IMG/VR virus record: IMGVR_UViG_3300037139_000049
Location: 1-54,241 of that record
Source of the DNA: a virus
Taxonomy: Duplodnaviria > Caudoviricetes
DNA: 54,241 nt
Reading direction: 5' to 3' (one strand)
Below, in pieces: positions 1,237 to 32,990 of the stretch (position 1 is the stretch's first letter; every line of letters starts with the position of its first letter). A program made the position numbers and the translations under genes. The notes beneath the pieces were generated by a model that was not told the DNA's origin, did not search any database, and saw nothing but the letters and a program-made list of their open reading frames with translations.

Positions 1237-1265
1237 GCGGCCTCGATCGAGCCTATGTAGTCCTC

Positions 1266-1281
1266 TATAGTGCTATATACT
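1266..1281 (+). promoter_or_regulatory. -10 element TATACT overlapped by palindrome TATAG-tg-CTATA (candidate RHH operator), leaderless start 7 nt downstream
   Basis: Sequence tatagtgctatatact, then GTG at 1289. Confidence 0.6.
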
Positions 1282-1288
1282 CTCGCCG

Positions 1289-1725: not shown

Positions 1726-1779
1726 TGAGCGAGGTCACTAGGGCGCTCACCGCTCGCCGAACGCAAGTAGACTGCTCGT

Positions 1780-5813: not shown

Positions 5814-6028
5814 CGTACAGTAATGTCGCTGAGCAGCGTTGCGGAAGGCACTTTGCTCGCCACGATGGCTGGGCCTCGCTTCGACTTGACGGTGTGCTGG
5901 TGGGCGACATACGCAGGTGTGATCCATACAGCTGGCAGGCGCGGCTCTTGGATGGCACGATCATGCCACGGCTGTACTGGCGGCGGTTGGAAGCGGCCGA
6001 GGACCTACACGCACGCACGGCTCGCTGA
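5810..6028 (+). CDS. Hypothetical protein
   Basis: Fills the gap with overlapping start/stop at both ends. Confidence 0.5.
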   Translation: MTYSNVAEQRCGRHFARHDGWASLRLDGVLVGDIRRCDPYSWQARLLDGTIMPRLYWRRLEAAEDLHARTAR

Positions 6029-9000: not shown

Positions 9001-9600
9001 CAGAAGCAGGCTGTCGCCACGGCGGTCAGGATCGGCGCTCTGACCGCAGAATCGGATGCTGTGAGGGTTGCTGAGGCCGCGATGATCCAGGGCCGTGACA
9101 AGGCGTGGGCGTGGCTGAGCGAAGCCCTGACGCATCTAGGCGACCATCTGCTGTACAACCCCGACGCCAACGTGGGACCAGCCGAGTGGGGCGATCTGAA
9201 TCCCGATGCGCTGGTGCCGACGGGTACGATCCGCGCGGCACTCGGGATTGCGGGTGGCGGCGACGTGGCCCTTGATCCCGGCGGTGTCACGACGATGGCG
9301 GCAGGCGAAGTGGTCGGGCAGATCGGCACGGGCGCGACGATCACCGAACTGCTCGGCGAAGGTGGCACCGAAGTCGCCGCATACGTTTGGGAACACGGCT
9401 CAATGACGATCCATCCGTTTGAGCCGCACCTAGCGCTCGACGGCGTGCAATTCGTCAACTTTGACGATCCGGTCTTGGCGAATCCCGATGACTGGCCGGA
9501 CAACCAATTTCTGACGCCCGGAGACCACAGCGGGTGTGGATGCGATGCCGTTCCGATCTACGTCACCGCAGAACAGGCCACCGAGTTAGAAACCGCGTAG
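6028..9600 (+). CDS. Portal protein with N-terminal intein and C-terminal MuF-like head morphogenesis domain
   Basis: Extein reads QGWQ|SDAWNYRDSIGELRYA (actinophage portal motif), W.PHP...ADS, NHWSAW; C-term FEPHLALDG...PGDHSGCGC. Confidence 0.88.
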   Translation: MPLFRKQRTAKHGLRVLAASSLRLNLEDKTEAKRLRALRQGWQCADAETEILTTRGWLGYGELAVGDMALTLNHETGESEWQPVEAVNTYEVEDAEMISMEGRLHSSLTTTGHKWPVLDRQSEWTSADTARRRERRHGLEPQTVLADRAPATMARRMVCSDALTSRQSLVTAAPCVDLPQGEVHDDAFVELVAWFWTEGYQRPTGYTAITQSERVNPECVKRIRAALTETFGPAHGTTRGLTRPAWRESRDGDCVVFALNRFAGRRLMAVAPCKIVDSGFIRSLTLAQLELFVQTSIDADGHRDDGTNVVLTQAKRERIEPLILAAILTGRTPHLYPRRNGQWTVHLRDKATVSPVGASKTEWTNRAKVVRKRYTGTVWCPTLPNHTWLARRNGTVYYTGNSDAWNYRDSIGELRYAINFLANSAARMRLFVGVEPMPGEEEKKPLQLSESSGIPAEVATEASLALADLAANEGTRRTIMKMLSTNVSTAGECFVLGRVDPETSEETWTIRSLDELAFQNDEYELREIPDGPQGIIPWVKLDPKLTTASRVWLPHPRFSLLADSSMRAMLADNESLLIMRRMIRSDSRSRLGRGLLLIPDELSIKVPEDDNEDPEADPFMGALTQAMMEPISDEGVASAVVPIVIRGPAEAMKELRKIDLHQPYEKEAAETREELIGIIATSFDLPKEVIMGTTDLNHWSAWNVDDNTFRHHIEPHVIDLCDALTGGYFHPRLLANGVPPEYVNRLVIWYDPTELVTHPDQTSDALKLHENLVLSDAALLRIAGFSEEDAPTKQEIQVRLLEKMRQWPPNLVMAFLHAWDPTLTAPAMAGPPAIPGISPKGVETAQEPEAILPGRPGAPQIPAETNGTAPVSEAEQPQIGPPAEPITAAGNPETDRLSRKLAQIDRDLRTRLQTAANAAMRRQLERVGANLRTKVAKDETMRTKIAHRPNERVSAILGKQALTAAHISPEDLMGNDWSALRAQFYDWTEAAQKQAVATAVRIGALTAESDAVRVAEAAMIQGRDKAWAWLSEALTHLGDHLLYNPDANVGPAEWGDLNPDALVPTGTIRAALGIAGGGDVALDPGGVTTMAAGEVVGQIGTGATITELLGEGGTEVAAYVWEHGSMTIHPFEPHLALDGVQFVNFDDPVLANPDDWPDNQFLTPGDHSGCGCDAVPIYVTAEQATELETA
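6157..7230 (+). mobile_element. Intein (358 aa) with LAGLIDADG-type endonuclease domain
   Basis: Block A CADAETEILTTRGW, block B TTGH, AWFWTEG and SIDADG motifs, block F/G VWCPT...ARRNG...TGN followed by Ser+1. Confidence 0.92.
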
Positions 9601-9618: not shown

Positions 9619-11742
9619 ATGAAGCAGCGAAAGCTATCCACCGGCCAGCCACGCTCGGCCCTCATCGCCTCCTATGCGGCCGCGGTTCCACCGCCCGCAC
9701 CCGAGAAGACGCCGCCACCGCCTGCGGATGACAAAGCACCACCGGAGCCCGACGCCAAGCCCGAAGGCCCCGACCTCGACGCCGACGTTGACGTGACCAA
9801 GGCCATCGACGCCGCTATCAAGGCTCAGGAAGCCGACCCGGACAAAGCCGACCCGAACGACGAGAAGGTGCTGAAGCTACTCAACGAAGCCAAGGCAGCG
9901 CAGGCGGCTGACACGGAGGACACGGCCAAAGAGTCAGCGGCACCGCCCGAGAAGGTGCCACCACCTGCCAAGGCTCCCCCGGCCGAGGTCAAGACGGCGG
10001 CAACCCAAGCCCCGGTCGTCGTACCGCCCGCCACGGCCGACAAACCCGCGAACCCCGTTGATGAGAACGGCAACGTGGACGACGAACACCCCTGCACACG
10101 CCCGGACTGCGGACACTTGGCCTCAGCGCACGAAGACCTGCCCGCTGGCGATAACACCGGCAAATGCACGATGGGTGGCTGTCATTGCCCGGCGATGGAA
10201 GTGGCCTCAGAACAGGACGAACCGGAATCCGAAGACGCCTCGGATATGGAGGCACCGGCCGGCGCAGGCGACGATGAGCAGAAGACGGCCATCGGCCAGC
10301 CCGTCCCCGTGGCACCAATCGACGATGCTGCCGCGCAGGAACAGAACCCACCGCCGCCGGTTGAGAGTGGCGAAGCGATCGGGCCAGCCTTTACTGCTGT
10401 GCTCATCATCGAGGGCCAGCCAACGGGTGACGGCCGGGAAATCAGCCCGCAGGCGTTGACATGGCGCACCCCGCCGATCCCGCTGATGTTCCTGAAGACC
10501 GAGACGCACGATCCCGAGGGCTTCGATATGAACGACCCGGCTGTGATCGGCGGCAATATCACGTCCGTCACGCGCGAACAGGGCGAGGGTGACACGCAAC
10601 TGCTGATCGGCAAGGGCAACCTTCTGACGACCGAAGACGGCATCTACGCCGCCGAAGTGATCGAGGGGATGGGCCGCATGGGGATCAGCGCAGACGTGTC
10701 CGTCGGTGATGTGGACATCTCGGTTGGTGACGTGGACGAGATTGGCTTCCCGACGGACATCACGGAAACGCTCACCACGGGCACGCTCATGGGTGCCACT
10801 GTCTGCCCGTTCCCGGCGTTCGAGGGTTGCTACATCGTGCTCGGCGACGAGCTGCCCGGTGCTGAGCCGAAGCAGATCGAGCAGGCCGTGGAAGCCCCCG
10901 AGCAGATCACGGCCGGCGGCATGTTGATCCACTGGATGTCCGAGACGGAGTGCGAGCCGTGCCAGCAGGGTTTTGAGGTCATCACAGCGTCAGGGGCAGG
11001 GCCTACGCGCCCCCCGGCCGCATGGTTCGCTGATCCGGGCTTCACCGAGGACGATGGGCGGCTGGTGGAGATTCTCGGCAAGCACGGCCAGCGCGAAGAC
11101 AAGTACGCCTGTCCGATCACCGTCGATGATGATGGGCGCGTTTACGGGCACCTTGCGGCATGGGGAACGTGCCATTCCGGCAAGCCTGGCCGCTGCGTGA
11201 CTGCACCGCACTCGGCCAGCGACTACGCCCACTTCAAGCACGGCTACGTCATCACGGCCGAGGGCGAGAAGATCCGCGTCGGCTCGATCACCGCTGACAC
11301 CGGCCACGCGAATCTCCAGTTCGGTCCCTATGCGGCGATGGGTCACTACGACAACACGGGCTATCAGGTCGCGGACGTGAACGCGGGCGAGGACGCCTAC
11401 GGCATCTGGCTTGCCGGAGCGGTTCGGCCCGACGCAACCGAGGAGCAGCTACGCAAGCTCATCGCGTCATCGCAGTCTGGGGACTGGCGCGAGATCGCTG
11501 GCCAGCTTGAGCTTGTCGCCTCGCTCTGTGTCCCGCTACCAGGATTCCCATTGGCTGTGGTTGAGGAGGCGTTCGTCGCTCATGGCCAGTTGGAGACGGT
11601 CACGGCGGCCGGTGCGAACGTTATGGCTCGGCTCAAGATGCCCGCTGAGCCCGTCGAGGTTGACCTGTTGAAGCTGGCCGCTCCGACGTTGACCCGGTTG
11701 GTTCGTGAGGATGCGCGGGAGCGGATCGGGGCGCTGGGATGA
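9619..11742 (+). CDS. Capsid maturation protease-like head protein with acidic Pro-rich N-terminus
   Basis: EG.PTGDGR, PLM, ATVCPFPAF, GRVYGHLAAWGTCH, GIWLAG, SGDWR motifs; lies between portal and capsid; SD acaggagg. Confidence 0.75.
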   Translation: MKQRKLSTGQPRSALIASYAAAVPPPAPEKTPPPPADDKAPPEPDAKPEGPDLDADVDVTKAIDAAIKAQEADPDKADPNDEKVLKLLNEAKAAQAADTEDTAKESAAPPEKVPPPAKAPPAEVKTAATQAPVVVPPATADKPANPVDENGNVDDEHPCTRPDCGHLASAHEDLPAGDNTGKCTMGGCHCPAMEVASEQDEPESEDASDMEAPAGAGDDEQKTAIGQPVPVAPIDDAAAQEQNPPPPVESGEAIGPAFTAVLIIEGQPTGDGREISPQALTWRTPPIPLMFLKTETHDPEGFDMNDPAVIGGNITSVTREQGEGDTQLLIGKGNLLTTEDGIYAAEVIEGMGRMGISADVSVGDVDISVGDVDEIGFPTDITETLTTGTLMGATVCPFPAFEGCYIVLGDELPGAEPKQIEQAVEAPEQITAGGMLIHWMSETECEPCQQGFEVITASGAGPTRPPAAWFADPGFTEDDGRLVEILGKHGQREDKYACPITVDDDGRVYGHLAAWGTCHSGKPGRCVTAPHSASDYAHFKHGYVITAEGEKIRVGSITADTGHANLQFGPYAAMGHYDNTGYQVADVNAGEDAYGIWLAGAVRPDATEEQLRKLIASSQSGDWREIAGQLELVASLCVPLPGFPLAVVEEAFVAHGQLETVTAAGANVMARLKMPAEPVEVDLLKLAAPTLTRLVREDARERIGALG

Positions 11743-13352: not shown

Positions 13353-15116
13353 ATGGACGAGATTCGTGAGCTACAAGGCAGGCTCGCCGAGCTGAGCGCA
13401 GAGGAGTTTGCGAAGCTCACTGAACTTGTCAAGGCCAAGGCCGCCGAGATCAACGACGACGACACCTCTGACGAGGCCACGTCGGTCCTCTCGGAGCTGG
13501 GCGACATCACCGATCAGATCGTGGCGGAGAAGACGAGCCGCGAGACGAAGGCTCAGGAGGGCCAGGAAGCCCGCGAGGCTGCCCGCGCACGGATCAACGC
13601 TATCTCCGGCGAGGAGGACGAGGAGGAGACGGCCGAGGAGCCAGAGAAAGACGAGGACGAGCCGGAGGAGGAGAAGGACGAGCCAGAGGCCGAGGCGACC
13701 GAGGAGGCCGAGACCGAGGAGGCTCCCGCCGAGGCCGTTGTCGCATCCGGCAAAAAGGGTGCCGTGCGGAACATGGCCAAACGCAAGCCGACACCGAGCC
13801 CCGAGGCAGTCGAGGAGCCGCGAGGAGCTACCCTGACCGCTTCCGCCGGCTACCAGGCCGGGCGTCCGATCACCGACCGCGAGGACTTGGCGCGAGAGTT
13901 CTGCCAGCAGCTTGAGCGGATGGACCGCCACGGCGGCAGCCAAGGCAAAGTCATCGTCGCCTCAATGGACTGGCGCGACCAGTACCCCGAGGATCGCAAA
14001 ATCGGGGGAAGCGTCGATGAGGCCAACGCGAAGATCGAAGCGGTCTGCGGGCGCACGGCGCAGAAGTACGACCCCGACACCGGAGCCCTCGTCGCAACCG
14101 GCGGCATCTGCCAGCCGGTGAACGTCGACTACACCGTGCCGACGTGGAGCACAGACGAGCGGCCGATCCACGACGCGCTCCCGTCCTTCGAGGCGACACG
14201 AGGCGGGATCAGGTTCGTCCAGCCACCGGACATCGCCGAATGGGAAGCGGCCACGGGGATTTGGACCGAGGCAACAGACGCGGAACCCGGCTCCTCGACG
14301 AAGCCTGTCAAGTCCCTCGCCTGCGGCACGGAAGAATCTGCATATGTCGAGGCGATCTCGACCCGCATCGGCTTCGGCAACATGCAGGCCCGCTTCGCAC
14401 CGGAGCAGGTTGCAGCTAACACGGATATGGCGATGGACGCCGCAGCCCGCGTGGCCGAGGTCAACCTCCTGAACCTGATCCAGACCTCCTGCGTGAAGAC
14501 GATCGAATTCGGCAAGCAGCTCGGGCTCGCCCGCGACCTGCTGGCACAGGTCGACGCTTGCTTGGCGGCCTATCAGTCGATCCACCGCATCCCGCAGTCC
14601 CAAGCCTTCACCGCGATCTTCCCGATCTGGGCGAAGGACATGTTCAGGATGGACATGCTGCGCGAGCAGGCCCACGACAACAGCGGCAGCTTCAACGTGT
14701 GGGAAATCTCAGACGAGCAGATCGACGGCTTCTTCAAGGCCCGCAACGTGAACGTGATCTGGCACCTGGACGGCCAGCCGACCAAAGGTACGACGTTCTA
14801 CAACCAGATCATGGAAGTGCCGGGCGAAACGGCGAAATTCGACTCGACCACGAACAAACTGTGGGAATCGGCCGCCAAAGTCGTCTGGTACTTCTTCGCG
14901 GAGGGGCAGATACAGTTGCTGGACGCGGGACGGCTCGATCTCGGGGTGGTGAGGGACTCCACTTTGGATGCCACGAATGATTATGAGACCTTTATCGAGG
15001 TCTTTGAGAGCATCGCTTTTCGAGGCTTCGCCAAAGGCGCATGGCAGCTAAACAGCGAAGTGCTGGCCTCAGGCGCAACCTCACTGCCCACCACTGGCGC
15101 AGCGAAGAACGTCTAA
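13353..15116 (+). CDS. Major capsid (hexamer-type) protein with N-terminal acidic scaffold segment
   Basis: Acidic coiled-coil N-terminus, LVATGGIC.P...Y, LPSF.ATRGGIRF, LDLGVVRDSTL...NDY..F.E motifs like actinophage cluster-B-type capsids. Confidence 0.88.
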   Translation: MDEIRELQGRLAELSAEEFAKLTELVKAKAAEINDDDTSDEATSVLSELGDITDQIVAEKTSRETKAQEGQEAREAARARINAISGEEDEEETAEEPEKDEDEPEEEKDEPEAEATEEAETEEAPAEAVVASGKKGAVRNMAKRKPTPSPEAVEEPRGATLTASAGYQAGRPITDREDLAREFCQQLERMDRHGGSQGKVIVASMDWRDQYPEDRKIGGSVDEANAKIEAVCGRTAQKYDPDTGALVATGGICQPVNVDYTVPTWSTDERPIHDALPSFEATRGGIRFVQPPDIAEWEAATGIWTEATDAEPGSSTKPVKSLACGTEESAYVEAISTRIGFGNMQARFAPEQVAANTDMAMDAAARVAEVNLLNLIQTSCVKTIEFGKQLGLARDLLAQVDACLAAYQSIHRIPQSQAFTAIFPIWAKDMFRMDMLREQAHDNSGSFNVWEISDEQIDGFFKARNVNVIWHLDGQPTKGTTFYNQIMEVPGETAKFDSTTNKLWESAAKVVWYFFAEGQIQLLDAGRLDLGVVRDSTLDATNDYETFIEVFESIAFRGFAKGAWQLNSEVLASGATSLPTTGAAKNV

Positions 15117-15156
15117 CCGGGAAAGCTGAGCGAGCACAGGAAAGGAATGGTCTGAG

Positions 15157-16494
15157 ATGGCGAATCGACTTCCGGTCGTCGTCCCGGCCATTCCCCCTGA
15201 GCCGCCGCAGCTTTCGCTTCTCAACTCAGCTCTCCGGCCCGACAAGACCAGCGACCCGGCGCTCGCCACGCTGGACACGATCACGCCGGAGCAGATGGCC
15301 AAGCTCCCCGATGATGTGCGCCTGGAGCTCGAGGCTCAGAAAGGCGATGCCTGGACGCGCGGCATCACCTACGCGCCCGAGAACCATTGGGAAACGTACC
15401 TGCGGGATGCGTGCGATACGACCACCGATGACCGGCCAGCACTGTTTGCTCCGCGCGGGCTGAAACTGACCGAAAAGGCGGCCGAAGGGACCCTCGCAGC
15501 CGAAGCCCACGAATTTCAGGTCACGGCGATCAACGCCAACGGCGAGACAACTGCCCTGGCCGCCAAATCGATCACCCTCGCTGCGGAAGGTGCGGTCCTG
15601 CTGACCTGGGAAAAGGTCAGCGACACGGCCACCTACCACGTCTTCCAGACCAAAGGCGCAACGGGCAAACCGCTACGGCTGAAATCGGGGGCGAAAACGC
15701 TCGTGGTGGCTGCGCCCGTCGAGGAGACGACGCTCACGGTGACGTATCTGGCGACAGGCACGGCCACCGAAGAAGCGGGCAAAGAAAAGCCAGCCACGAA
15801 CACCACGGGCGGCACGGGCGCCTACACGAACCTCGCCAGCGTCGAAGCGTATCCCTACGTGCTGCAGGTCGAGGACTTCTGTACGACGCTCGGCTTCGAT
15901 GCCAGGGACTTCGCGGGCCGCGCGGAACGGCTGTTGCAGAACGGCCAGCACAAGGCGATCGAGAAGGAGTTCTGGGCTGGTGCTCTGGCGACCAAAGAAA
16001 ACTACCCGAACAAGTTCCTCGCCTCCGAAGGGCTAGCAACGAACATCACGCCGAAAACGGGTACGCCCTCAGCCTCGCGTGGCCTGCAGTTGCTCCAGGA
16101 GGCCCTACAGGAATGCGGGTTCGGTGGCCGCGGCATGATCCACACGCAGGCCCAGACCGCCCCGAACTTCCTGCAGACCCGCCGTGTCGGTGCGCTGCTG
16201 CTCGACATCTTCGACAACATCATCGTCCCCGGCGTTGGCTATCCCGGTACGGGGCCGCTTGAAACCGGCACGGCCCTGGCACCCAAAGCGGGTAACACGT
16301 TCATGTACGCCACGGACCTCGTGTCCTGTCGGGTGGAGGATAAGCCGACGATCTTCGCCGACACGTTCGCCGAGTCGATGGACTGGGGCCAGGGTCCTGA
16401 ACCGAACACGATCCGGATGCGCGCCCGCAAGTTCGCGGTCGCCTATGCCGATATGGCCTGCGTGTTCTGCATCGAAGTGGAACTGCCCTCATGA
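15157..16494 (+). CDS. Second capsid protein (pentamer-type) with inserted FN3-like surface domain
   Basis: AIEKEFW, GL.LL.EAL...GMIH, IVPGVGY.GTGP, MYAT, NT....AR..AVAY; insert QVTAINANGET...LTW...YHVF. Confidence 0.7.
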   Translation: MANRLPVVVPAIPPEPPQLSLLNSALRPDKTSDPALATLDTITPEQMAKLPDDVRLELEAQKGDAWTRGITYAPENHWETYLRDACDTTTDDRPALFAPRGLKLTEKAAEGTLAAEAHEFQVTAINANGETTALAAKSITLAAEGAVLLTWEKVSDTATYHVFQTKGATGKPLRLKSGAKTLVVAAPVEETTLTVTYLATGTATEEAGKEKPATNTTGGTGAYTNLASVEAYPYVLQVEDFCTTLGFDARDFAGRAERLLQNGQHKAIEKEFWAGALATKENYPNKFLASEGLATNITPKTGTPSASRGLQLLQEALQECGFGGRGMIHTQAQTAPNFLQTRRVGALLLDIFDNIIVPGVGYPGTGPLETGTALAPKAGNTFMYATDLVSCRVEDKPTIFADTFAESMDWGQGPEPNTIRMRARKFAVAYADMACVFCIEVELPS

Positions 16495-17006
16495 GCGAGC
16501 GGACCGACGTCGAGGCGGCAGGAGACGGCTACGGCGGGGTCCTGATCCTCCGCAACGTCTCCACGGGCTCGCTGGAGTACCAGCGCACGCCGACGGTGTT
16601 CAAGCCGATCACCGCGGCGATCACCCCCGAATACAAAGGCGAATGGGAAGCCACTAGCCACTACTTCCAGGCAGAATGGACGATCTGGACGCCCGCGACC
16701 GGCAAAAAGTTCAGGGTGCTCGGCTGGTCGCTGTGGGCGTCCGAACACATGCTGCTCGGTATCAAAGACGGCGGCGCGGCCACCGCTGGCACCACGGGCA
16801 TCATCATCCCCGTCTCAAAAGAAGGCAGCCCGGCCAGCACCCCACCGAACTTCGCTAACGGCTACCTGTCCTCCACGGCCGTGAACAAACTGACCCTGTA
16901 CTGCCGTAGCAAAACGGGGACGGGCGCTGAAACCTGCTCGGAAGCCGAAGCCAAAGTCGTCAGCGAATACAAACTCTACGGCTACATCTTCGGGACCGAA
17001 GAGTGA
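16491..17006 (+). CDS. Putative virion structural protein
   Basis: WTPATGKKFRVLG...GYLS.TA.NKL..; position in the head cluster; GAA/AAA-rich. Confidence 0.6.
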   Translation: MSERTDVEAAGDGYGGVLILRNVSTGSLEYQRTPTVFKPITAAITPEYKGEWEATSHYFQAEWTIWTPATGKKFRVLGWSLWASEHMLLGIKDGGAATAGTTGIIIPVSKEGSPASTPPNFANGYLSSTAVNKLTLYCRSKTGTGAETCSEAEAKVVSEYKLYGYIFGTEE

Positions 17007-17037
17007 ACCCACGAACCCATAACGAAGGAGCGAACCA

Positions 17038-18288
17038 ATGGCATCTCTAACACCAGCCGCATCGGTATGGGTCGTGGCCACCCGCGTCACGTCCCTAACT
17101 GCAGAAGGCGAACCGGCGCCGGGTAACGCGATGTACGTCACCGAACAGCTCATGAAGCTGACGGCCGCCCCAGCGGTGGAGACCGGCGACGAAGTCAAGA
17201 TCAAGAACGCCTCGGGCAACCTCTCGGTGTACGCCAAGCACGGCGACATGCCGACGTGGGGCAAACTGACCTTCGACCTCGTGGAGCCCGACGCGAACCT
17301 TGAGGCGCTGCTGACGGGCGGCACGCTGCTCGGCTCCTCTGCTGCTGCGCTGGGGGAACCGTCCGCGGCCACAACGCTCAACCAGGAAAAAGGCGGCGAA
17401 CTCGCCAAAGCCTTCTATGGCTACCGCATCGCGAACTACAACAGCTTCGGAGAATCGAAAGCCACCGTCGAAGTGGCGGCCGAAGCGAAAAACGCGGTGG
17501 CGGAAAACACGATGGTCGTCATTCCAGCCACGGGCACCTTCACTGCGGGCACACTTGGTCTCAGGGTCTTCGGACGTACCGGGGGCGTGCAGCAGTACAT
17601 CGGCACGATCCCGAACATTGGCAAACAGAAATTGTCCGTTGCCATAGCGGCCAAAGAAGCGAAAAACAAAACGGTCATCCCGATCACTGTCACGGCCCTC
17701 ACGGAATCGATCCCGAAGGGCACGATCCTGATGGTCAAAGGTGACACGTCCGCGCCAAAGGCTCTGCTCAAGACGACGATCTTCGGAGCGAAGGGTGCGA
17801 CGGTCCTGGAAGTCGAAAACATCGCGGTGGAAAACTCGGCCAAAATCGAACCGGAAGAATTCATCCCCGTGTTCGTGGACACCGGGGCGATCACGCCTAG
17901 CGGTGGTATCCCGACGGTTGACCAAACAGCGGGTCCGGGCGAAAACATCGGTGTCAACGCTCCCGAACTTGGCCAGGTCGGCAACGAAAACGGCGTGTCG
18001 ATCGAGTGCTTCACCAAGGCCATATCCAAAGGCGTGCAGACGCTGACCCAGCCGTTCTACCACTGGATCTTCCCGCGCTGCACGAACTTCCACATCGCCA
18101 CAAGGGATCTGACGAACGCGAACGCTGCGACGACGATCGAAGGCGAGGCGTTCAATAACCTGAACTGGGGTTCGGGACCCGCAGGGGACTGGCCGTTCGC
18201 CTCGACGAAATGGTACGGGCGCGCTCGCTGCTCGCGCAACATCGTGCCGACGATCGAAGAGGGCGTCAACCAGCAAGCCAAGCTGTAG
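17038..18288 (+). CDS. Major tail protein with inserted surface (FN3/Ig-like) domains
   Basis: RVTSL..., ETGDE..IKNASG.L.V N-terminus; YHWIFP, NLNWG.GP C-terminus; AAGGAG SD. Confidence 0.8.
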   Translation: MASLTPAASVWVVATRVTSLTAEGEPAPGNAMYVTEQLMKLTAAPAVETGDEVKIKNASGNLSVYAKHGDMPTWGKLTFDLVEPDANLEALLTGGTLLGSSAAALGEPSAATTLNQEKGGELAKAFYGYRIANYNSFGESKATVEVAAEAKNAVAENTMVVIPATGTFTAGTLGLRVFGRTGGVQQYIGTIPNIGKQKLSVAIAAKEAKNKTVIPITVTALTESIPKGTILMVKGDTSAPKALLKTTIFGAKGATVLEVENIAVENSAKIEPEEFIPVFVDTGAITPSGGIPTVDQTAGPGENIGVNAPELGQVGNENGVSIECFTKAISKGVQTLTQPFYHWIFPRCTNFHIATRDLTNANAATTIEGEAFNNLNWGSGPAGDWPFASTKWYGRARCSRNIVPTIEEGVNQQAKL

Positions 18289-20539: not shown

Positions 20540-20549
20540 AAGGAGCAGC

Positions 20550-20999
20550 ATGAGACTAGATCCCATTGGAGTAGTCGACCACCCGGAGCAGATCGACCTA
20601 GAGCCGATCACCATCCCCGTCGTCGGCTACCGCATCAAGGACCGCAAGCCTGTCGAGGAGGAGTTCAACTTCCACGCCTCACGGCCGTGGGGGGTAGTGC
20701 TGGCCCTGTTCGAGTCGGAGACAGAAAAGGAGTTCGCCGAACGCACCATCGGCTGGCTCTCCTACTGCATGTTGAGCGACACCGAACGCGAGCGCTGGAA
20801 GGCGTTCCTGATGCGCGAGGACATCGCCATCGCACAGTCCACCGTGGAGGAGGTCTATAAGGCGCTGGCGGAGACCTACGCTGGCCGCCCTACCCTGCCG
20901 CTTTCCGACTCTTCTGGTGGTGGAAAGCGAACGAAGCAGACATCTCGGGCCGGCTCACGCGCGAGGGCTGCGGCCTCCAACGGCTCCGGCCAGTCATAG
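20550..20999 (+). CDS. Tail assembly chaperone (G-like)
   Basis: AAGGAG SD; upstream of the tape measure; ends GRPT..S.SS.G. Confidence 0.75.
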   Translation: MRLDPIGVVDHPEQIDLEPITIPVVGYRIKDRKPVEEEFNFHASRPWGVVLALFESETEKEFAERTIGWLSYCMLSDTERERWKAFLMREDIAIAQSTVEEVYKALAETYAGRPTLPLSDSSGGGKRTKQTSRAGSRARAAASNGSGQS

Positions 21000-21211: not shown

Positions 21212-24200
21212 ATGACGGTCGTCGGCACAGCAGAGATCCTGATTGTTCCCGAGACGGCTGGCTTCGCTGCCGCGCTCGAGGGCGAGTCTGCCGCGGGCTT
21301 TGGCAAGGTCAAGTCAGACGCCGAGACGGCAGGCAAGGACGCAGGAGCGAATCTCCGCACGGGCGTCAAGGATGGCACCAAAGGGCTTGAGTCGGACATG
21401 GGCAACGTCGGCAGCGTGGCCGGCGGGAACCTTCGCAAGGGCGTCAAGGATGAGACGGGCAAGCTCGGCTCGGACCTAGAGAAAGACGGGAAAGCTGGCG
21501 GCGAGGGCCTAACGAAAGGCATGTCGGGCGGGCTCGGGAAACTGGCGAACCTGATCTCCAACACGGGCCTGCCGCTCGGAGGATTGAGCTCGGGCCTTGA
21601 GAAGTCGGCAGGGGCCGCTGAGCACGCCGACAAGAGCACCGGGAGCTTTGTGGGGTCGCTCGGGAGTGCCGCCGGCCCGCTCGCTGCGGTGGGCGTTGGG
21701 TTGCTCGCAGGCGGCGGTTACGCAGTCCACCTGGCCGAGGGGATGGAAACGGCCGAGGCGTCCATCGCGGGCGCCGCGGGCACGTCTGTCACCGCGGCTG
21801 ACAAGATCGGTAACGCCCTGCTCGACACGGCTGGCAAGTCCGAGTTCAGCGGCACGGAAATGGCGAAGGCGTATGCGGAAGTCGCCGGCCAACTGAAGGC
21901 GACGGAGGGCCATGCGCTCAGTGCGGGCGAGGCGACGGGGGTTATGACGGCGGCCTCCAATCTCGCAGAGGCAAAGCAGATCGGGCTCGGCGAAGCGACA
22001 TCGACCGTGGCTAAGACGATGCAGGCGTTCCAACTGCCCACGACCCAAGCGGCACATGTCACCGATGTGCTGTTCAACGCATCCAACGCAACCGGGCAGT
22101 CCGTTGAAGGGCTCGCCACGCAGCTCACCAAAGTCAAGTCGAAGCTCGGGGAAATGGCCCCGTCCGTCGGCCAGCTCTCGGGGCTCTTGGTGGACATGAC
22201 CGACCACGGTGTCACTGGCCGTGCGGCGATGACCGGGCTGAACACGGGGCTGAACACGCTGCTCAAAGGCGCAGACGGTGTGACGACGGCCGTCAAGTCG
22301 CAGAACACCGCCTATGAGTCGATGACGCCGCAGCTGAAACACCTTGCCGACGAATACAAAAGCGGCGCGATCTCTGCCACGGCCTTCAAGAAAGAGGCGG
22401 GCGAACTGGCCCCGGCGCAGGCGGGCCTCGCCGAATCGTTCGCTAAGGGCGCGACCGCCGTGCAGACCGCGCAGCTCAAGCAGAAAGAACTCGGCGTCAC
22501 CGTCTTTGACTCGGCCGGCAAGTTCGTCGGCATGGGCTCCGTGATCGACCAGCTCTACCCGAAGTTCCAGAAGATGTCCCAACAGCAGCAGCTCACTACG
22601 GCTTCGACGCTCTTTGGTGCGGGCGCCGCGCGGCAGATGATGACGGTCATCGACGCTGGCCCCGCCGCCTACAACAAAGCCACAGCCTCGGTCGAAAGGC
22701 ACGGCGCCGCTGAGTCGGCCGCTAAGAAGCAGTCGGAAACCCTGCACGGTGAGCTGAAAACGCTTGAGGCCACGCTGGTCGATCTCGGCACGAAGATCGG
22801 CGTTGTGCTCATCCCGGTCGTGACGACGTTCGCGGGTGTGCTGCTGAAAATCATCCCCACGGTTGGGGCAGTGGTGGACTTCATCAAATCCCACTGGGTG
22901 CTCGTCGGCACGATTCTACTCGGGCCGATAGTCCCCACCATCGCCGCCTTCACCGTCTGGAAATCGAAACTCGAAAGCATCTTCACCGAGATCGTGAGCT
23001 GGATCAAGAACGCTTGGCATACCGTCGAAACAGACACGAGCCATCTAGTCGGCAGCATCGTCAGCTTCTTCACCAGCCTGCCGGGGAAAGTGATCTCGCC
23101 CCTCAAGGCCATCCCCGGCGACATCGTGCAGCTATGGGACAAAGTGGAAGGTGGTGTCTCAACGCTGATGACCAACATCGGCAAGTTCTTCTCAGAACTG
23201 CCGAGCCACATCATCGGCGATCTGAAAGCGCTACCGGGCGACATGCTCCACCTGGGAGAAGAACTTGGGGAAGAGCTGGTCAAGGGAGTCGAAAAGTTCG
23301 CAGAAAAGATCGAGCACGCTATCACGAACCCCGTCGAAGAAGCGGTCAAGGCGATCGAATCGCTCAACCCGTTCGGCGGTGGCGGTGGGAGCAGCCCGAC
23401 AACAGGCGGCGCCACGGCCGGTGTCACGGGCACCACGCAGGCCACCGGCACCAGCGCGGGGATGGTAAAGGCCCTAGAAGCCTCCGGCCTCTCTGCCAAC
23501 GCCGCACAGGGGATTGTCGCCGCCTACGGGGCCGAAGGCGGGACGAACACAGCAGAAGATCCGAAAGAAGGCGCGTATGGGAAAGCCCAGTGGGTCGGCT
23601 CCCGGAAGACGGCGCTCGGGCAGTTCGCAGCCTCCAAACACGAACCGATCTCATCCGAAAAGGCGCAGCTGGAATTCACCGCCAAGGAGATCAAGGAACG
23701 CGGGGAAACGGGCGAGCTGAACAAGGCCAAGTCGCCGAAGGAAGCCGCGGACCTGTTCATCAAAAGCTTCGAGCATCCAGCATCACCAGCGACCGTAGAA
23801 GGGCGTGTGAACGCATCGAGTCGCCCGGCCGCCGCAAAGCATACGGAAGCGACCACGAAGAACACCGCCGCTGTCGAACACAACACGGCTGCACACACCA
23901 AAGCCAAAGGCACGAAAGCCGAAGCGAGCCTCCCCGGTGGGGTGACAACGGCCGGTGAAGCCACCACGTCCACGGGTGCGGTCACGAAGGCCGGGGTTGC
24001 AAAGGAGGTGGCCCAGCAGAAGCAGGCACTCGCCGACTGGGTAGCCAAGATGCAGGCCGAGGCGAAGAACGGCAGCAAGGATCAGAAAGCCGCCATCGCC
24101 CAGGAGATCGCCGACCGCAAGGCTTACATAGCACGGCTGATCGCCGACGAGAAGGCCGGGCTCACCGTGACGCAGGCCGCTCAGAAAGAGAAGGCCAAGG

Positions 24201-25033
24201 CCGAAGTGGCACTCAAGTCCTCCGGTGAAAAGGAACTCACGAAGCTCCAGGGCGCGCTCACGTCGGGAAGTCTTGCCACGTTGAACAAGACACTGACGGC
24301 CACGCATGAGCGGGCGCTCGCGGCCATCGAGGGCAAGCTGGTAGGCACGCACAAGGCCGCTCTCGAAAAGCTCGACGCGGAGCTCGGCAAGACGTGGAAA
24401 GAGGCCGAGGCCAAGAAAGCCTCAGACGAACGCACGGAACGCGCGACGGCCGAGGCTGATGCTGCCACCGCCAACCGTGAAGCCTACGAAGCCAAAGAAG
24501 CGGCCGATCAGAAGATCCGCGAAGAATACATCTCGCTTGAGGCGGCGCAGATCACCAAGAACACCACCCTCGCCACCGACCAGTCCGATGCCGTTGTGCA
24601 GGGGATTCAGGACTCGACGAAGGTCGCCCTGGACAAGCAGGCCGAGGTCGGACTCACGGGCACCGCTGAGATCGCCGCGCGCCTGCAAACCGTGCTCGAT
24701 GAAGTCACAGGCGAACAGAACCAGGCAGTAGACGCGGCGAAGCTCGCGGCGGACAACGCCCAGGGTACGGGAGCCATCTCCGAAGCCCAGGCGGCGGCGC
24801 ACTTGGCTGAAGTCGAATCGAACGCCAAGCGTCTCGAGGCTGAAGCGCAGGCGAAGGAGGAAATCGCCAAAGGCACAGTGTCCACGGCCGCAGGAGCGAC
24901 CCCTGGCCCCAGTATCACCCTGAATCTCTACGGCAACGCGAACATGACCTCAACAGAGTGGATGACCGAGGTCGGCTGGACGCTCAAGACCGGTGAACTG
25001 CCAGCCCCGACACCTACGGCGCTGCCTGCCTGA
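21212..25033 (+). CDS. Tape measure protein with phage tail lysozyme-like domain
   Basis: 1273 aa Ala/Gly-rich; TMP motif GVTVFDSAGKFVGM; lysozyme-like GLS.NAA.GI....AE...AYG.AQW.G.R..L. Confidence 0.9.
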   Translation: MTVVGTAEILIVPETAGFAAALEGESAAGFGKVKSDAETAGKDAGANLRTGVKDGTKGLESDMGNVGSVAGGNLRKGVKDETGKLGSDLEKDGKAGGEGLTKGMSGGLGKLANLISNTGLPLGGLSSGLEKSAGAAEHADKSTGSFVGSLGSAAGPLAAVGVGLLAGGGYAVHLAEGMETAEASIAGAAGTSVTAADKIGNALLDTAGKSEFSGTEMAKAYAEVAGQLKATEGHALSAGEATGVMTAASNLAEAKQIGLGEATSTVAKTMQAFQLPTTQAAHVTDVLFNASNATGQSVEGLATQLTKVKSKLGEMAPSVGQLSGLLVDMTDHGVTGRAAMTGLNTGLNTLLKGADGVTTAVKSQNTAYESMTPQLKHLADEYKSGAISATAFKKEAGELAPAQAGLAESFAKGATAVQTAQLKQKELGVTVFDSAGKFVGMGSVIDQLYPKFQKMSQQQQLTTASTLFGAGAARQMMTVIDAGPAAYNKATASVERHGAAESAAKKQSETLHGELKTLEATLVDLGTKIGVVLIPVVTTFAGVLLKIIPTVGAVVDFIKSHWVLVGTILLGPIVPTIAAFTVWKSKLESIFTEIVSWIKNAWHTVETDTSHLVGSIVSFFTSLPGKVISPLKAIPGDIVQLWDKVEGGVSTLMTNIGKFFSELPSHIIGDLKALPGDMLHLGEELGEELVKGVEKFAEKIEHAITNPVEEAVKAIESLNPFGGGGGSSPTTGGATAGVTGTTQATGTSAGMVKALEASGLSANAAQGIVAAYGAEGGTNTAEDPKEGAYGKAQWVGSRKTALGQFAASKHEPISSEKAQLEFTAKEIKERGETGELNKAKSPKEAADLFIKSFEHPASPATVEGRVNASSRPAAAKHTEATTKNTAAVEHNTAAHTKAKGTKAEASLPGGVTTAGEATTSTGAVTKAGVAKEVAQQKQALADWVAKMQAEAKNGSKDQKAAIAQEIADRKAYIARLIADEKAGLTVTQAAQKEKAKAEVALKSSGEKELTKLQGALTSGSLATLNKTLTATHERALAAIEGKLVGTHKAALEKLDAELGKTWKEAEAKKASDERTERATAEADAATANREAYEAKEAADQKIREEYISLEAAQITKNTTLATDQSDAVVQGIQDSTKVALDKQAEVGLTGTAEIAARLQTVLDEVTGEQNQAVDAAKLAADNAQGTGAISEAQAAAHLAEVESNAKRLEAEAQAKEEIAKGTVSTAAGATPGPSITLNLYGNANMTSTEWMTEVGWTLKTGELPAPTPTALPA

Positions 25034-28561: not shown

Positions 28562-28783
28562 ATGGCTCAAGCGGAACTAGCCGTCGCCTACAACATCAAG
28601 AAAGCGGCAGTCGACCCCTACGTCAAAGCGTTCTGTGCGCTCACGGGGCAGCCCGAACCGCCCAAGGGCGAAGTCACGGTGCCCGAGTTCCATTCACTGC
28701 TCCGCGCGGTGATGAACAAGGTGGAAGGCGACTATCAGCGCGCGAACTTCGTCCCGGTCCCTGCGGAAGGGGCGAACGAATGA
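28562..28783 (+). CDS. Hypothetical protein (possible fibre chaperone)
   Basis: AGGA SD; follows the fibre gene. Confidence 0.65.
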   Translation: MAQAELAVAYNIKKAAVDPYVKAFCALTGQPEPPKGEVTVPEFHSLLRAVMNKVEGDYQRANFVPVPAEGANE

Positions 28784-30123: not shown

Positions 30124-31023
30124 ATCACCGTCGCGGCCATCCCAGCGTACATTCAGTCCGGCTCCCACAGCAGCCAGCTATTCAGACAGGCGATCTCCTC
30201 GCTGTTGAACTCGGCCGGCGGGACGGTAGGCGCCGGTGGCCTTCTCGTCAGCGAACACGTCGCAGCGAACATGAGCGTGAACGTGCTTGGCGGTGCGCCG
30301 GAAAAAGGCGGCATCTGGGTCCCCGGTACGAGCTCCGCTGGTATCCAGGGCGAGTATTACGGCTGGAACGAAAGCACGACCAACGTCGGTATCAGCGCAT
30401 CCTCGGCGTCCAACAACCGCACCGATCAGATCGTTGCGCAGGTCAAGGATGCGTTCTACGCCGGGGCCGAATCCCTGTTCACGCTCTCCTATGTCGCGGG
30501 CACAGCCGAAGCGGGCGTCACGAAAGAAAACCACAAAGGTGCGGGGGCGCTTCCGGCTAGCTCGTTGCTCTTGGCCTACGTGTTTGTGGAAGCCAGCGTG
30601 GCGTCGATCACGAATGCGGCGATCACGAACGTTGTAGCTCAGGCGACCCCTGGCGTAACTGGCGCTAGTTACCGAGAAGGCACTGCACGGCCAGCAGCTG
30701 CGGTCAAAGGGCGCGTCTACTACGCCACCGACACAAAGACCTTCTCAGTCGACTCGGGGTCCGCGTGGCTCCCGATCTCACGGGTGGCGACATACGGGGC
30801 CACGGCCGAAGGTATCTCTGGGACTGGGCTCCTGATCACCGAAAGCCGCACGCATGTCTGGGTTGGATGCTCAGCCGTGCTCACCGAAATCAACGTGGGC
30901 GGTGTCCAGCTGAACATTGAAGGCAGCCCCCACAACGCCTCGTTTATCGTCGACGTGGGGCAGGAATTCGCCGTGAAAACGACCGGCGGCGTGAACTACA
31001 AGTACAACCTCAAGCTCTTCTAG
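30124..31023 (+). CDS. Minor tail protein; start uncertain (ATC 30124 or TTG 30205)
   Basis: Open frame from 30118 reading ITVAAIPAYIQSGSHSSQLFRQ; MSVNV..G, RTD.IVA.V.D..Y, LPASSLLLA.V.V motifs. Confidence 0.75.
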   Translation: MTVAAIPAYIQSGSHSSQLFRQAISSLLNSAGGTVGAGGLLVSEHVAANMSVNVLGGAPEKGGIWVPGTSSAGIQGEYYGWNESTTNVGISASSASNNRTDQIVAQVKDAFYAGAESLFTLSYVAGTAEAGVTKENHKGAGALPASSLLLAYVFVEASVASITNAAITNVVAQATPGVTGASYREGTARPAAAVKGRVYYATDTKTFSVDSGSAWLPISRVATYGATAEGISGTGLLITESRTHVWVGCSAVLTEINVGGVQLNIEGSPHNASFIVDVGQEFAVKTTGGVNYKYNLKLF

Positions 31024-32300
31024 CGCACTTCCACGCTCGCGCTCGGCCCCGCCTCGTCTCCGTAATGCGAATCCGCCGAGGCATACCCAACGTTCACAGG
31101 GTAGTCACCCGCCTTGGGGTACACAAGCGAGCACTGAGCAACAGCCTGCCCCGAGCCGTTGAATACTTCGCTGCAGTCCGCTGAGCCGTCGAGATCGTTC
31201 GTCGTTTCAGCATCCGGGGCGGTGAAGGCCATGAAGCCGAGTGGGGTTTCGTCACCGGGGAAGTTGCCGGTGGCGGCGGCTTTGAGGATGAGCCGTTCGC
31301 CCACGTTGAGGATGATGGGGTCCGGCGGGGCGCCCTTGCCGAACGTCCCGGCCCTGCCGCTGGTCCCAATCTCCCAGCCCGCCCACGAGAGGGTGGCCGC
31401 GTAGGCCGTGACCTTCGGGATGATCGGCAGGCTCTCGGGCGCCCATTCTTCTGTGAGCTGGCGTTCGCCGTTCGGAGCGACCAGTTGGGTGATCGTCGCG
31501 CCCGTGCCGCCGGGGTAGTTGACCGTGAGGCTCGAGGGCGTTCCGAGCATCGAACAGGAGGCTTCATAGTCAGACACCTGTGCTTGGCAACTCTGGCCTT
31601 CCTGATCTTCAATCCCGACCGAGGCCGCTCCTTGCCAATTCGGCGAGGTCAAGGTGATCTGAGCGGTCCCGTTTTCAACGGTGGCCTTGGCGCTCGGTGC
31701 GGGCCATGCTTTCGTGATCGTCGCAGCCGGTGGCTCGATCCGGTCGACCTCGCCCTCGGTGGCGCTCAGGCCACCTGAGACGTATGCGGTGATGACCGAG
31801 TGGTTGCCGTAGGAGGAATAGAGCACGGGGCACTGGCCGCCGTTGGCTGGCCCTCCGACGTTGATCGCGCACTCAAGGCTGCCGTCGGAGTAGAGGAACA
31901 GGATTCCGCTCGGGAGGTTCTGTTCGGCCACGTCCCCGATGCTCGCGCTGGCAGAGAAGCTGTAGGTCACGCTAAGCGCGTCTGAGGGGTCCTGCTTGAA
32001 GGTTGGGTCCAGGTGGGCGTGGAGGGCCACAGGGGGCACGGGAGCGGGCGCAGGGGCCGCAATGGCCGGTTCGGGCACAATGACGATTTCCTCGATGGCC
32101 GGGGCCTTGGCCTTCGGTGCGATGTAGACGCAGAGCGTTCGCTTGACGCGGTGGCCGTGGACCTTGACGTGCTCGACGCGCTTCCAGTAGTGGACGCGGC
32201 AGTGTTCGTGCTTTGGGTGGTGCAGGACGTAGGACTTGCCTTCTGCCAGCGCGGGGAACGCGAGGGCGGCGAGGAGGAGGGCTGGGAGCAGGCGTCTCAT
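31020..32300 (-). CDS. Secreted beta-rich (Ig-like) protein
   Basis: Signal peptide MRRLLPALLLAALAFPALA, His/Lys-rich segment, Cys-paired beta domains. Confidence 0.75.
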   Translation of the reverse strand: MRRLLPALLLAALAFPALAEGKSYVLHHPKHEHCRVHYWKRVEHVKVHGHRVKRTLCVYIAPKAKAPAIEEIVIVPEPAIAAPAPAPVPPVALHAHLDPTFKQDPSDALSVTYSFSASASIGDVAEQNLPSGILFLYSDGSLECAINVGGPANGGQCPVLYSSYGNHSVITAYVSGGLSATEGEVDRIEPPAATITKAWPAPSAKATVENGTAQITLTSPNWQGAASVGIEDQEGQSCQAQVSDYEASCSMLGTPSSLTVNYPGGTGATITQLVAPNGERQLTEEWAPESLPIIPKVTAYAATLSWAGWEIGTSGRAGTFGKGAPPDPIILNVGERLILKAAATGNFPGDETPLGFMAFTAPDAETTNDLDGSADCSEVFNGSGQAVAQCSLVYPKAGDYPVNVGYASADSHYGDEAGPSASVEVR

Positions 32301-32515
32301 GGCTCTTTCCAATCGCGCGCCGCACGGACCATCGCTTCCATCGGTACGGCTAGGCGCTCACCGAGATTGCGTCCGAGCTCGTCAACGGCTTGTCTGAGCT
32401 TCTCGGCTTCCTCGAAGTACGTTGGCTGCGAGGGTCCGCGTAGAAACAGCACACCGATGATCCATCCGCCGATCAGGCCAAGCACGATGGCCGACACGAT
32501 CGCCAGCGCGATCAT
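32297..32515 (-). CDS. Small membrane protein
   Basis: N-terminal TM helix; ATGA overlaps. Confidence 0.65.
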   Translation of the reverse strand: MIALAIVSAIVLGLIGGWIIGVLFLRGPSQPTYFEEAEKLRQAVDELGRNLGERLAVPMEAMVRAARDWKEP

Positions 32516-32739
32516 CGTGACCTCGCCAGCGCGTCGGACTCCTGAGCCTCGCGTAAGCCGGCCACGATGGCGTCCTGCACGAGCCGATGATACGGCCCGT
32601 CGAGGTCGTAGGAGAGGCCCCGATACCACAGGATCGCCTTCTCGAAATCTCCTCCGCTAACGGCTACGGCCAAGGCCGTCTGGCATGCCGCCTGGCGCAT
32701 CGCATTACAGGCTGTGGAGAGGACGTCGTCTTCGTTCAT
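32512..32739 (-). CDS. Hypothetical protein
   Basis: ATGA overlaps on both sides. Confidence 0.6.
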   Translation of the reverse strand: MNEDDVLSTACNAMRQAACQTALAVAVSGGDFEKAILWYRGLSYDLDGPYHRLVQDAIVAGLREAQESDALARSR

Positions 32740-32990
32740 TCGGACTGCTTTAGTCGCTTAGCTTCGCGCAGGGCTTCTTCGGTCGCCTTGTCTTCCTTGC
32801 CAGCGGCTTCGCGGTTCTTCTGGGCTTCGCACTGAGAGGCGAAGGTCGCGTTACTCGGTTCGAGTTCGTGGGCTTCGCACGGAGCGCCCTGCTTGGCTCG
32901 ATCACTGGCGACTTCGGAGCTTGAGCCACAGCCCGCAAGTGCGAGGGTGGCGAGGACAAAAACCAGCAAGAAGTGTTTCGTCTTAGGCAT
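32736..32990 (-). CDS. Lipoprotein
   Basis: Lipobox LALAGC; leaderless start. Confidence 0.75.
   Translation of the reverse strand: MPKTKHFLLVFVLATLALAGCGSSSEVASDRAKQGAPCEAHELEPSNATFASQCEAQKNREAAGKEDKATEEALREAKRLKQSE

Follow-up and report, generated by a model that had tools for sequence, protein, structure and literature searches.

The DNA stretch analysed here (hereafter the window) is the whole 54,241-bp virus record IMGVR_UViG_3300037139_000049 (Caudoviricetes), the genome of a soil siphophage with approx. 64% GC, in which glutamate and lysine switch between A-ending (GAA, AAA) and G-ending (GAG, AAG) codons from gene to gene and within single genes. The virion module encodes a split large terminase, a portal protein with a large insert, a MuF/protease protein, the major capsid protein (MCP), a second capsid protein (cap2) and the major tail protein (MTP), along with a head-tail adaptor, the tape measure protein (TMP), Dit, minor tail proteins and a collagen-like fibre (Table 1). 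It is followed by a replication module with a helicase-methylase gene. Genes were called from open reading frames (ORFs) and curated by eye, a few small ORFs being doubtful, and the frames are open when read with the standard code. No near relative was found in the phage collection searched, and Rfam gave no match in the window; the only tRNA reported by ARAGORN, a 96-nt ‘tRNA-Pyl’ with a CUA anticodon at 20541–20636 on the minus strand, antisense to late genes and without a Rfam match, is probably spurious.

The GAA:GAG ratio ranged from 6:60 in the helicase-methylase gene to 30:0 in the minor tail gene 27261–28553, with 24:6 in the MTP gene. Heterogeneity between genes was pronounced for Glu (chi2 = 276.6, df 41, p=1e-36) and Lys (p=5e-10), and 13 other codon pairs tested in the same way gave p values from 0.0065 to 0.88. 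In the GAA-rich gene set compared with the GAG-rich one, the share of GAA was 0.70 vs 0.21 and that of AAA 0.44 vs 0.16, CAA stood at 0.10 vs 0.15 and third-base A in the remaining codons at 0.076 vs 0.081; the GC3 of the GAA-rich genes was 0.75–0.82. In some whole proteins, beyond any clusters, GAA accounted for 100% of Glu. GAA-rich genes were also low in Asp (3.0% vs 6.2%) and Arg (2.9% vs 7.0%), Asp falling to 0.5% in the minor tail gene 27261–28553. The codon switch is confirmed as real and as limited to Glu and Lys.

Several simple causes were rejected. The out-of-frame GAA/(GAA+GAG) ratio was equal in the two gene sets (0.77 vs 0.75), so that the effect exists only in frame and a DNA or RNA nucleotide motif does not account for it. 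Neighbouring-base context was too weak an influence (GAA share of 0.34–0.47 by the next base and 0.27–0.55 by the previous one). Expression level does not fit either, as the most abundant protein, MCP, has a ratio of 14:54 and a low-copy minor tail protein one of 30:0, and no phage-encoded tRNA is present to which the switch could be attributed.

Within genes, a permutation scan statistic detected blocks with p<0.05 in 7 of 17 genes, all seven being virion genes, and gave p values of 0.39–0.98 for the four non-virion (replication-side) genes included (0.64 for the helicase-methylase gene). In the fully A-ending MTP block the scan p value was 0.014, with 20/36 A-ending codons elsewhere in the gene. 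A runs test, which has low power, gave weaker results (MCP p=0.076, cap2 p=0.39). The whole MCP gene (13353–15116) matches the major head protein family phrog_777 (E=4e-59), and its G-ending N-terminal part is probably a scaffold domain absent from the mature head. A preliminary description of the window, made from the sequence alone, had named a series of segments with biased Glu and Lys codons, all of which checked out on recount: the N-terminal part of MCP is almost all GAG, a loop of the same gene at 14780–14880 uses only GAA and AAA (3:0 and 4:0), and the GAA:GAG and AAA:AAG ratios are 11:4 and 8:2 in 16491–17003 and 13:3 and 7:9 in the TMP segment 23530–23930, with GAA:GAG 13:1 in 30205–31020. 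Since the switching is both intragenic and codon-specific, as that description had argued, whole-gene transfer and plain expression-level bias fail as explanations.

Table 1 Features of the window and their Glu and Lys codon use (unlabelled pairs of ratios within one feature are GAA:GAG and then AAA:AAG)
Feature	Coordinates	Strand	Codon use and family matches
A-ending block in MuF/protease gene 9619–11742	10084..10231	+	8/8 A-ending vs 16/82 elsewhere, p=0.002
MCP N-terminal part, acidic at its end, G-ending Glu/Lys codons	13353..13830	+	GAA:GAG 2:37, AAA:AAG 3:8
MCP body with all-A-ending block 14784–14877	13831..15116	+	block 7/7 A-ending vs 17/88 elsewhere, p=0.008
cap2; beta-domain insert ~15460–15810 GAA/AAA-rich	15157..16494	+	insert 9:3 and 7:3
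Small virion-module gene, GAA/AAA-rich	16491..17006	+	11:4 and 8:2; scan p=0.018; no family match (Pfam, PHROG)
MTP; central beta-rich part 17356–17860 nearly all GAA/AAA	17038..18288	+	17356–17704 18/18 A-ending; phrog_792
Head-tail adaptor, mixed codons	18289..19176	+	GAA:GAG 12:6; phrog_783
Contrast: Arc-like small gene in late module, G-ending codons	19191..19613	+	2:19 and 0:10; Arc-like / endonuclease VII PHROG families
Tape measure	21212..25033	+	GAG-rich N-terminal part 21212–21991 3:17; GAA-rich centre 21992–23957 35:11; scan p=0.036; TMP PHROG families
Distal/minor tail genes	25033–25995, 25992–27260, 27261–28553, 28562–28783	+	GAA:GAG 12:6, 21:8, 30:0, 6:1; Dit and minor-tail PHROG families
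Virion structural / minor tail protein	30205..31023	+	GAA:GAG 13:1; PHROG matches
High-GAA genes 31020–32312 and 32736–32990	31020..32990	-	18:9 and 11:0 (GAA:GAG of the two genes); no family match (Pfam, PHROG)
Contrast: helicase-methylase early gene, G-ending codons	45409..47664	+	6:60 and 1:29; Pfam Helicase_C, N6_N4_Mtase

The structure models of MTP and cap2 were poor (pLDDT 54.6 and 44.2). In these models the A-ending blocks fall in beta-rich middle domains (MTP residues 128–281, cap2 residues 103–199), and the RAA:RAG codons of cap2 are distributed as 2:9 in helices, 9:3 in strands and 19:12 in coil. Foldseek matched the MTP model best to siphophage tail tube proteins, with weak TM-scores. 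The inserted domains had been described as FN3-like, for which no Pfam FN3 or Ig match was obtained, but the low-confidence model of cap2 (block pLDDT 37–83) does contain a seven-strand beta domain at residues 103–199. They had also been called Asp-poor, and the insert of cap2 (15460–15810) indeed has 1 Asp in 117 codons and that of MTP (17380–17860; GAA:GAG 14:0, AAA:AAG 11:4) 1 in 160; this is partly a family trait, however, as cap2 of more distant relatives (clade B, below) has the same Asp content. The view that two secreted non-virion genes (31020–32300 and 35472–36647) keep plenty of Asp did not stand, with contents of 4.0% and 2.9%. The latter is not evidently a secreted non-virion gene, as the ORF 35406–36647 matches collagen-like tail-fibre families.

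Searches with MCP and cap2 yielded six distinct relatives. Clade A comprises the window and the loci L002, L004 and L009, with a GC content of 0.62–0.65 and the switch in all four (GAA:GAG in MTP 24:6, 18:7, 21:5 and 18:7). Clade B (L006, L010 and L011; GC 0.68–0.70) has next to no GAA or AAA (GAA:GAG in cap2 0:14, 1:18 and 2:14), and the inserted domains exist there without A-ending codons. The Gordonia phage Tiamoceli has the same gene order and lacks the switch.

Proteins of clade A are 58–64% identical, and codon identity at four-fold sites is 0.36–0.50, and synonymous sites are saturated. Between the window and L002 the Glu codon was identical at 130 of 156 conserved Glu, with 90.5 expected (p=0.0002); D, N, H, Y, F, Q, T, G, V, L, R and I were at expectation, and Ala, Pro and Ser showed a slight excess. 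In adjacent discordant pairs the order of the two codons was kept rather than reversed in 51:4 cases for Glu and 9:0 for Lys, compared with 9:9 for Asp, 20:22 for Ala, 12:8 for Thr, 7:13 for Gly, 10:4 for Val and 23:7 for Pro. The 48 columns with Glu in all four clade A genomes were bimodal in their number of GAA codons (19, 5, 1, 5 and 18 columns, vs 3.3, 12.5, 18, 11.5 and 2.8 under a binomial distribution). The probability of a third-base A, given a third-base A in the partner, was 0.83 for Glu and 0.81 for Lys, vs 0.12 for Gln and 0.13 for the pooled four- and six-fold families. Around a fixed GAA or GAG the flanking synonymous sites vary freely, and GAA and GAG sites alternate at distances of a few codons, an arrangement maintained in four lineages. 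Mutation bias or unsaturated synonymous sites were rejected as the cause on the basis of the control families in the window–L002, order and third-base-A tests. As a separate observation, Thr ACG and Pro CCG were mildly over-dispersed in the clade A alignments of MCP, cap2, MTP and others (7 all-four-identical columns vs 2.1 and 1.5 expected), and Pro also tended to keep its order (23:7).

The codon used at a site is predicted more sharply by whether the Glu or Lys is ancestral than by its place in the particle. Sites with GAG in the window correspond to Glu in clade B in 45% of comparisons and those with GAA in only 12%, the clade B residue otherwise being Ala, Thr, Asp, Gln, Ser or Gly. In cap2, Glu common with clade B has a GAA:GAG ratio of 4:43 and Glu confined to clade A one of 71:15 (27:1 for those present in all four genomes, 22:8 in some and 22:6 in one). 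In MTP the corresponding ratios are 8:18 for the common Glu and 16:0, 38:2 and 19:5 for clade-A-only Glu in all four, some and one, and in the body of MCP they are 7:49 for common and 44:16 for clade-A-specific Glu. Overall, the GAA share was 0.15 at Glu conserved in clade B vs 0.51 at variable Glu (p=5e-21), and the AAA share 0.02 vs 0.39 at conserved and variable Lys; the same test in 17 codon families gave p values of 0.035–1 for the 15 besides Glu and Lys. At columns invariant in clade B, GAA faces Glu in 31/89, GAG in 173/213 (81%), and GAC faces Asp in 198/229; counted by partner, GAA at such columns (n=89) met Glu in 35%, Ala in 19%, Gly in 13% and Asp in 8%. Ancestral sites therefore stand at the genome default of approx. 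10–20% GAA, the level of most early genes, and new sites are held at GAA; third-base A elsewhere amounts to 5–12%.

The preliminary description had proposed that the switch tracks the inside versus the outside of the particle, and this is partly supported. After ancestral residues are set aside, a gradient emerges in the GAA:GAG ratios of lineage-specific Glu, from the N-terminal part of MCP (5:35) through the protease part (11:20), the portal (37:37) and the adaptor (14:10) to the MCP body (44:16), cap2 (71:15) and MTP (73:7). The part of the protein matters too, and the likely host follows the same rule (below), but ancestry is the sharper predictor, and the tape measure does not fit the proposal, being GAA-rich in its centre.

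To which host such a phage may belong is suggested by related elements. The MCP alignment found 22 loci in metagenome-assembled genomes of Solirubrobacterales, Acidimicrobiales and other Actinomycetota. The switch was seen in Solirubrobacterales elements, such as L017 in genome G002 (GAA:GAG 12:8 in MTP, 68:30 in TMP) and L026 (20:14 in cap2, 16:4 in MTP), and was missing in loci from Actinomycetes, Mycobacteriales and two Acidimicrobiales genomes (L015, L019), further Acidimicrobiales loci having intermediate MCP ratios, e.g. 12:18. The closest relative found was an element in G556, with an MTP 79% identical over 230 amino acids and GAA:GAG ratios of 19:14 in cap2 and 18:4 in MTP. From these records we infer that the window phage infects the Solirubrobacteraceae genus to which genomes G001–G003 belong, or a close one.

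Two further observations concern integration in these genomes. MCP homologues were also found in Solirubrobacterales/Solirubrobacteraceae chromosomes at L013, L016, L018 and L029 (three with 49–60% identity over 456–493 amino acids, L029 with 82% over 104), all a few kb from a tRNA gene and with no portal, cap2 or MTP homologue in the 10-kb flanks; they may be cryptic or satellite-like elements. In G001 the 3' end of tRNA-Glu(CUC) is repeated exactly over 21–24 nt at G001:C6:736309–736329 and 772295–772318, 3 kb and 39 kb downstream of the gene, and these repeats look like attachment-site scars of integrated elements.

Of the 44 tRNAs listed in G001 and the 45 in G003, each set includes one tRNA-Glu(CUC) and no canonical tRNA-Glu(UUC), and a tRNA-Glu covariance model gave the same picture for G002. 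The sole tRNA with a UUC anticodon in G001–G003 is an identical 97-nt molecule, which ARAGORN mis-folded (‘???’). The Rfam tRNA model recognises it with 66.6 bits, and Rfam and RNAfold both fold it as a cloverleaf with the anticodon loop CUUUCAA (anticodon UUC). It departs from the canonical bacterial form (a cloverleaf of 72–90 nt with a short D-loop) in that its D-loop is enlarged by 25 inserted nt, which fold into a hairpin of 7 bp capped by a UNCG-type loop (UUCG here, UUCG or UACG among variants). This tRNA was present in 37/41 genomes sampled from the genus, 2/61 from the family and 1/41 from the order. Across six variants 98.2% of cells were paired and all five helices were supported; both partners changed in 6 of 28 pairs, including two pairs of the extra hairpin, and 0/500 shuffles reached the covariation score. 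In a permissive gapped alignment its body was nearest to the tRNA-Glu(UUC) of the order, with 62/66 aligned positions. No conversion enzyme or special synthetase was found, and the flanking genes were uninformative.

The possibility that the whole host order is without a GAA-reading tRNA was rejected, because 17 of 20 second-best hits of the tRNA-Glu covariance model in the order were ordinary tRNA-Glu(UUC). A search pattern for the UUC anticodon arm was insensitive, matching 19/301 genomes of the phylum, and a weak tRNA-like fragment at G001:C2:517290–517347, considered as a Glu tRNA, proved Asp-like. G038, a genome flagged as unpublished, was among those sampled with the pattern and the covariance model, and none of the conclusions rests on it. 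It was also observed that tRNA-Lys(UUU) of G003 (L097:7633–7703) has a 6-nt anticodon loop, with one T fewer than in G001, which may be a homopolymer assembly error.

GAA is a rare codon in G001, making up 9.9% of Glu codons (412:3734 in 172 ORFs). Among heuristically called ORFs, we compared exported-like ones, which have a single hydrophobic segment within their 80 N-terminal residues, with cytoplasmic-like ones lacking a hydrophobic segment (Mann-Whitney). The GAA share was three to five times as high in the exported-like ORFs, at 31% vs 9.8% in G001 (n=23 exported-like ORFs, p=6e-6) and 52% vs 11.9% in G003 (n=27, p=3e-10). AAA likewise rose, to 13% and 25% vs 7% and 8% in G001 and G003, respectively, with other A-ending codons flat; CAA was 0.121 vs 0.071 in G001 and 0.074 vs 0.051 in G003. 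No such bias was seen in two control genomes from the same order whose tRNA-Glu(UUC) is normal (G041 8.8% vs 10.0%, G021 5.6% vs 7.5%). Seven of the ten GAA-richest ORFs of G001 had a Pfam match, mostly of envelope or extracytoplasmic type (two NHL propellers, DUF1800, a YkuD transpeptidase, a cytochrome b/c protein, a rhomboid and a GHL15 hydrolase), and three had none. In 33 orthologue pairs between G001 and G003, 39 of 63 GAA codons face Glu codons and 4 face Asp, and the eight commonest partners listed do not include Lys; these alignments suggest that GAA in the host still means Glu or something very like it.

The reading that we favour, with about an even chance of being correct, is that the phage follows a host-specific decoding channel for GAA that serves proteins working outside the cytoplasm. 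As shown above, GAG and AAG stand at ancestral Glu and Lys, and GAA and AAA at those added in this phage lineage, mainly in parts of capsid and tail proteins retained in the mature particle. GAA would be decoded via the dedicated 97-nt tRNA, and this decoding may differ from that of GAG in speed, timing, fidelity or product in a manner suiting extracytoplasmic proteins. Exposed, tolerant sites might then be held at GAA by selection, and ancestral sites at GAG. AAA would follow more weakly, possibly through single G-to-A changes from GAA to AAA at sites tolerant of either charge.

A number of points weigh against this proposal. Virion proteins are not exported, so that a rationale in host targeting or secretion kinetics needs a further assumption for the phage, and the tape measure is GAA-rich (35:11 in its centre) although it lies inside the tail tube. 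AAA is enriched too, though tRNA-Lys(UUU) looks ordinary, and GAA–GAG exchange is frequent in the host orthologues (GAA facing 23 GAG vs 16 GAA). The putative assignment of the window phage to its host comes from related prophages in the genus, where cap2 relatives were found in only 2/151 genomes, and a search of the 2.6-Mb assembly of one of these two, G556, did not find the 97-nt tRNA. For the proposed link between tRNA and secretome, two genomes were compared with two. It should be noted that the exported-like call is crude and that the regions of G001 and G003 were chosen around tRNA genes, those of the controls being evenly spaced.

Another explanation, which we regard as not very likely, lies in the phage only: GAA and AAA could be slow codons at loops of beta-rich virion domains that pace co-translational folding or assembly, the host pattern being coincidental or reflecting the same need in beta-rich exported proteins. 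The coincidence of A-ending blocks with beta-rich predicted domains, the helix, strand and coil counts in cap2, the G-ending MCP N-terminal part (taken as helical) and portal, and the beta-propellers among the GAA-rich host ORFs are all in line with this. The underlying structure models, however, are of low confidence, no other rare codon is enriched, and GAA reaches 100% of Glu in whole proteins. The tape measure, presumably largely helical, is GAA-rich, neither Tiamoceli, with its identical gene order, nor clade B has the switch, and sister hosts have no secretome bias.

It is also conceivable, but unlikely, that the 97-nt tRNA(UUC) of this Solirubrobacteraceae genus carries a residue different from plain Glu, such as a Glu modified while attached to the tRNA. 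In that case GAA would represent a distinct coding word of a 21st type for extracytoplasmic proteins, and the phages of the genus would write this residue onto exposed capsid and tail surfaces. Such a residue would explain why GAA and GAG are not interchangeable, why host and phage share a compartment rule, why the normal tRNA-Glu(UUC) was lost and why GAA sites are rarely Glu in clade B.

Translational accuracy offers a quite unlikely account, in which GAG is the accurate codon retained at conserved Glu and other sites drift to GAA under A-biased mutation. The shares at conserved and variable Glu (0.15 vs 0.51) and Lys (0.02 vs 0.39) are as it predicts, but the 15 other families show no comparable difference and third-base A elsewhere stays at 5–12%. 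Moreover, GAG predominates at the lineage-specific Glu of the MCP N-terminal part (5:35) and in the early genes as a whole, and GAA makes up 96–100% of the clade-wide new Glu (27:1 in cap2, 16:0 in MTP), far beyond the drift level in the genome.

That the host lineage reads GAA as some other standard amino acid, be it Asp, Lys or a small residue, is highly improbable. GAA does behave as a separate residue in the order test and in the four-genome Glu columns, it faces Glu in just 31/89 of the clade-B-invariant columns (173/213 for GAG), and GAA-rich proteins are low in Asp. Glu is nevertheless the top partner of GAA in those columns, the host orthologues pair GAA mostly with Glu codons, and the body of the 97-nt tRNA is closest to the order's tRNA-Glu(UUC); Lys and Asp in particular receive no support from the partners in clade B and in the host orthologues. 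A historical mosaic, with A-ending segments from donors or hosts of other codon preference not yet ameliorated, would fit the concentration of these codons in inserted domains and fast-evolving tail genes but can be discarded almost entirely, being contradicted already by the restriction to Glu and Lys, by the interleaving of GAA and GAG sites kept in four saturated lineages and by the same domains in clade B without A-ending codons; the capture of inserts from low-GC donors, named in the preliminary description as what would overturn its proposal, is excluded on these grounds, other codon families being unchanged.

A host decoding channel of the kind we favour can be set beside several known systems. 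In Streptomyces, a high-GC actinobacterium, the rare A-ending codon TTA is read by a tRNA-Leu(UAA) from the single dedicated gene bldA and occurs in a subset of genes. GAA is likewise rare in the likely host, G001 and G003 have one UUC tRNA gene, and a functional class of genes is enriched in the codon. Here, however, GAA makes up 30–100% of Glu codons in the target proteins, whereas TTA occurs once or a few times per gene; individual GAA positions are conserved, an extra arm distinguishes the tRNA, the phage copies the rule in its virion genes, and the dependence on the tRNA is putative. Stop-codon recoding in phages affects late genes, and as there, structural genes hold the codons of the special decoder and early genes avoid them, but the present case involves a sense codon, no phage tRNA and frames that are open under the standard code. 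Translational accuracy of the Akashi type links codon choice to site conservation; the correlation of codon identity with residue conservation is shared, although here it concerns Glu and Lys only, is near-deterministic and depends on the compartment. The structurally specialised tRNA-Sec and tRNA-Pyl, of non-standard architecture, each serve one codon. The 97-nt tRNA, too, is of odd architecture and conserved in a lineage, but its extra element is a D-loop hairpin and Glu is still its best-fitting meaning.

In the fungus Magnaporthe oryzae, the AA-ending codons of cytoplasmic effector mRNAs need thiolation of tRNA U34 by Uba4-Urm1 (bioRxiv 10.1101/2025.11.10.687658). According to this preprint, AA- vs AG-ending codons also set one secreted class apart there, and U34 tRNA decoding controls its production. 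That system is eukaryotic and the preprint pools all three AA-ending codons, whereas in the window CAA is not enriched (0.10 vs 0.15), and the joint shift of GAA, AAA and CAA that tuning by U34 modification would bring was seen neither in the phage nor in the host genomes; the present case further differs in having an altered tRNA structure rather than a demonstrated modification, a very high density of the codon in target genes, conservation at the level of sites and a phage partner. The phage partner of such codon control is new, and the literature searched contained no report of the codon pattern or of the 97-nt tRNA, the Magnaporthe analogue being all that turned up.

Synonymous codons are usually held to be interchangeable over long divergence, whereas here GAA and GAG act like two residues, sorted by outside location. 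The likely host appears to sort its exported proteins likewise and to have replaced its usual tRNA for GAA by one that bears an extra arm. If this link is true, codon partitioning by cellular compartment exists in bacteria, its signature could aid the host assignment of uncultured soil phages, and a natural, possibly orthogonal tRNA–codon pair is open to study.

Three minor observations concern other genes of the window. The portal gene (6028–9600) contains an insertion of approx. 365 amino acids (about residues 36–400), missing from the portal of L002, which begins with Cys, ends in ...GN ahead of Ser and is intein-like in look. Matches to the large terminase are split over the ORFs 337–1236 and 1780–2460 (window 337–2460), with a 100-aa ORF at 1423–1725 between them. 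Finally, a 393-aa antisense ORF (17095–18276, minus strand) in the codon-aligned frame runs across nearly all of the MTP gene, as is commonplace in high-GC DNA.

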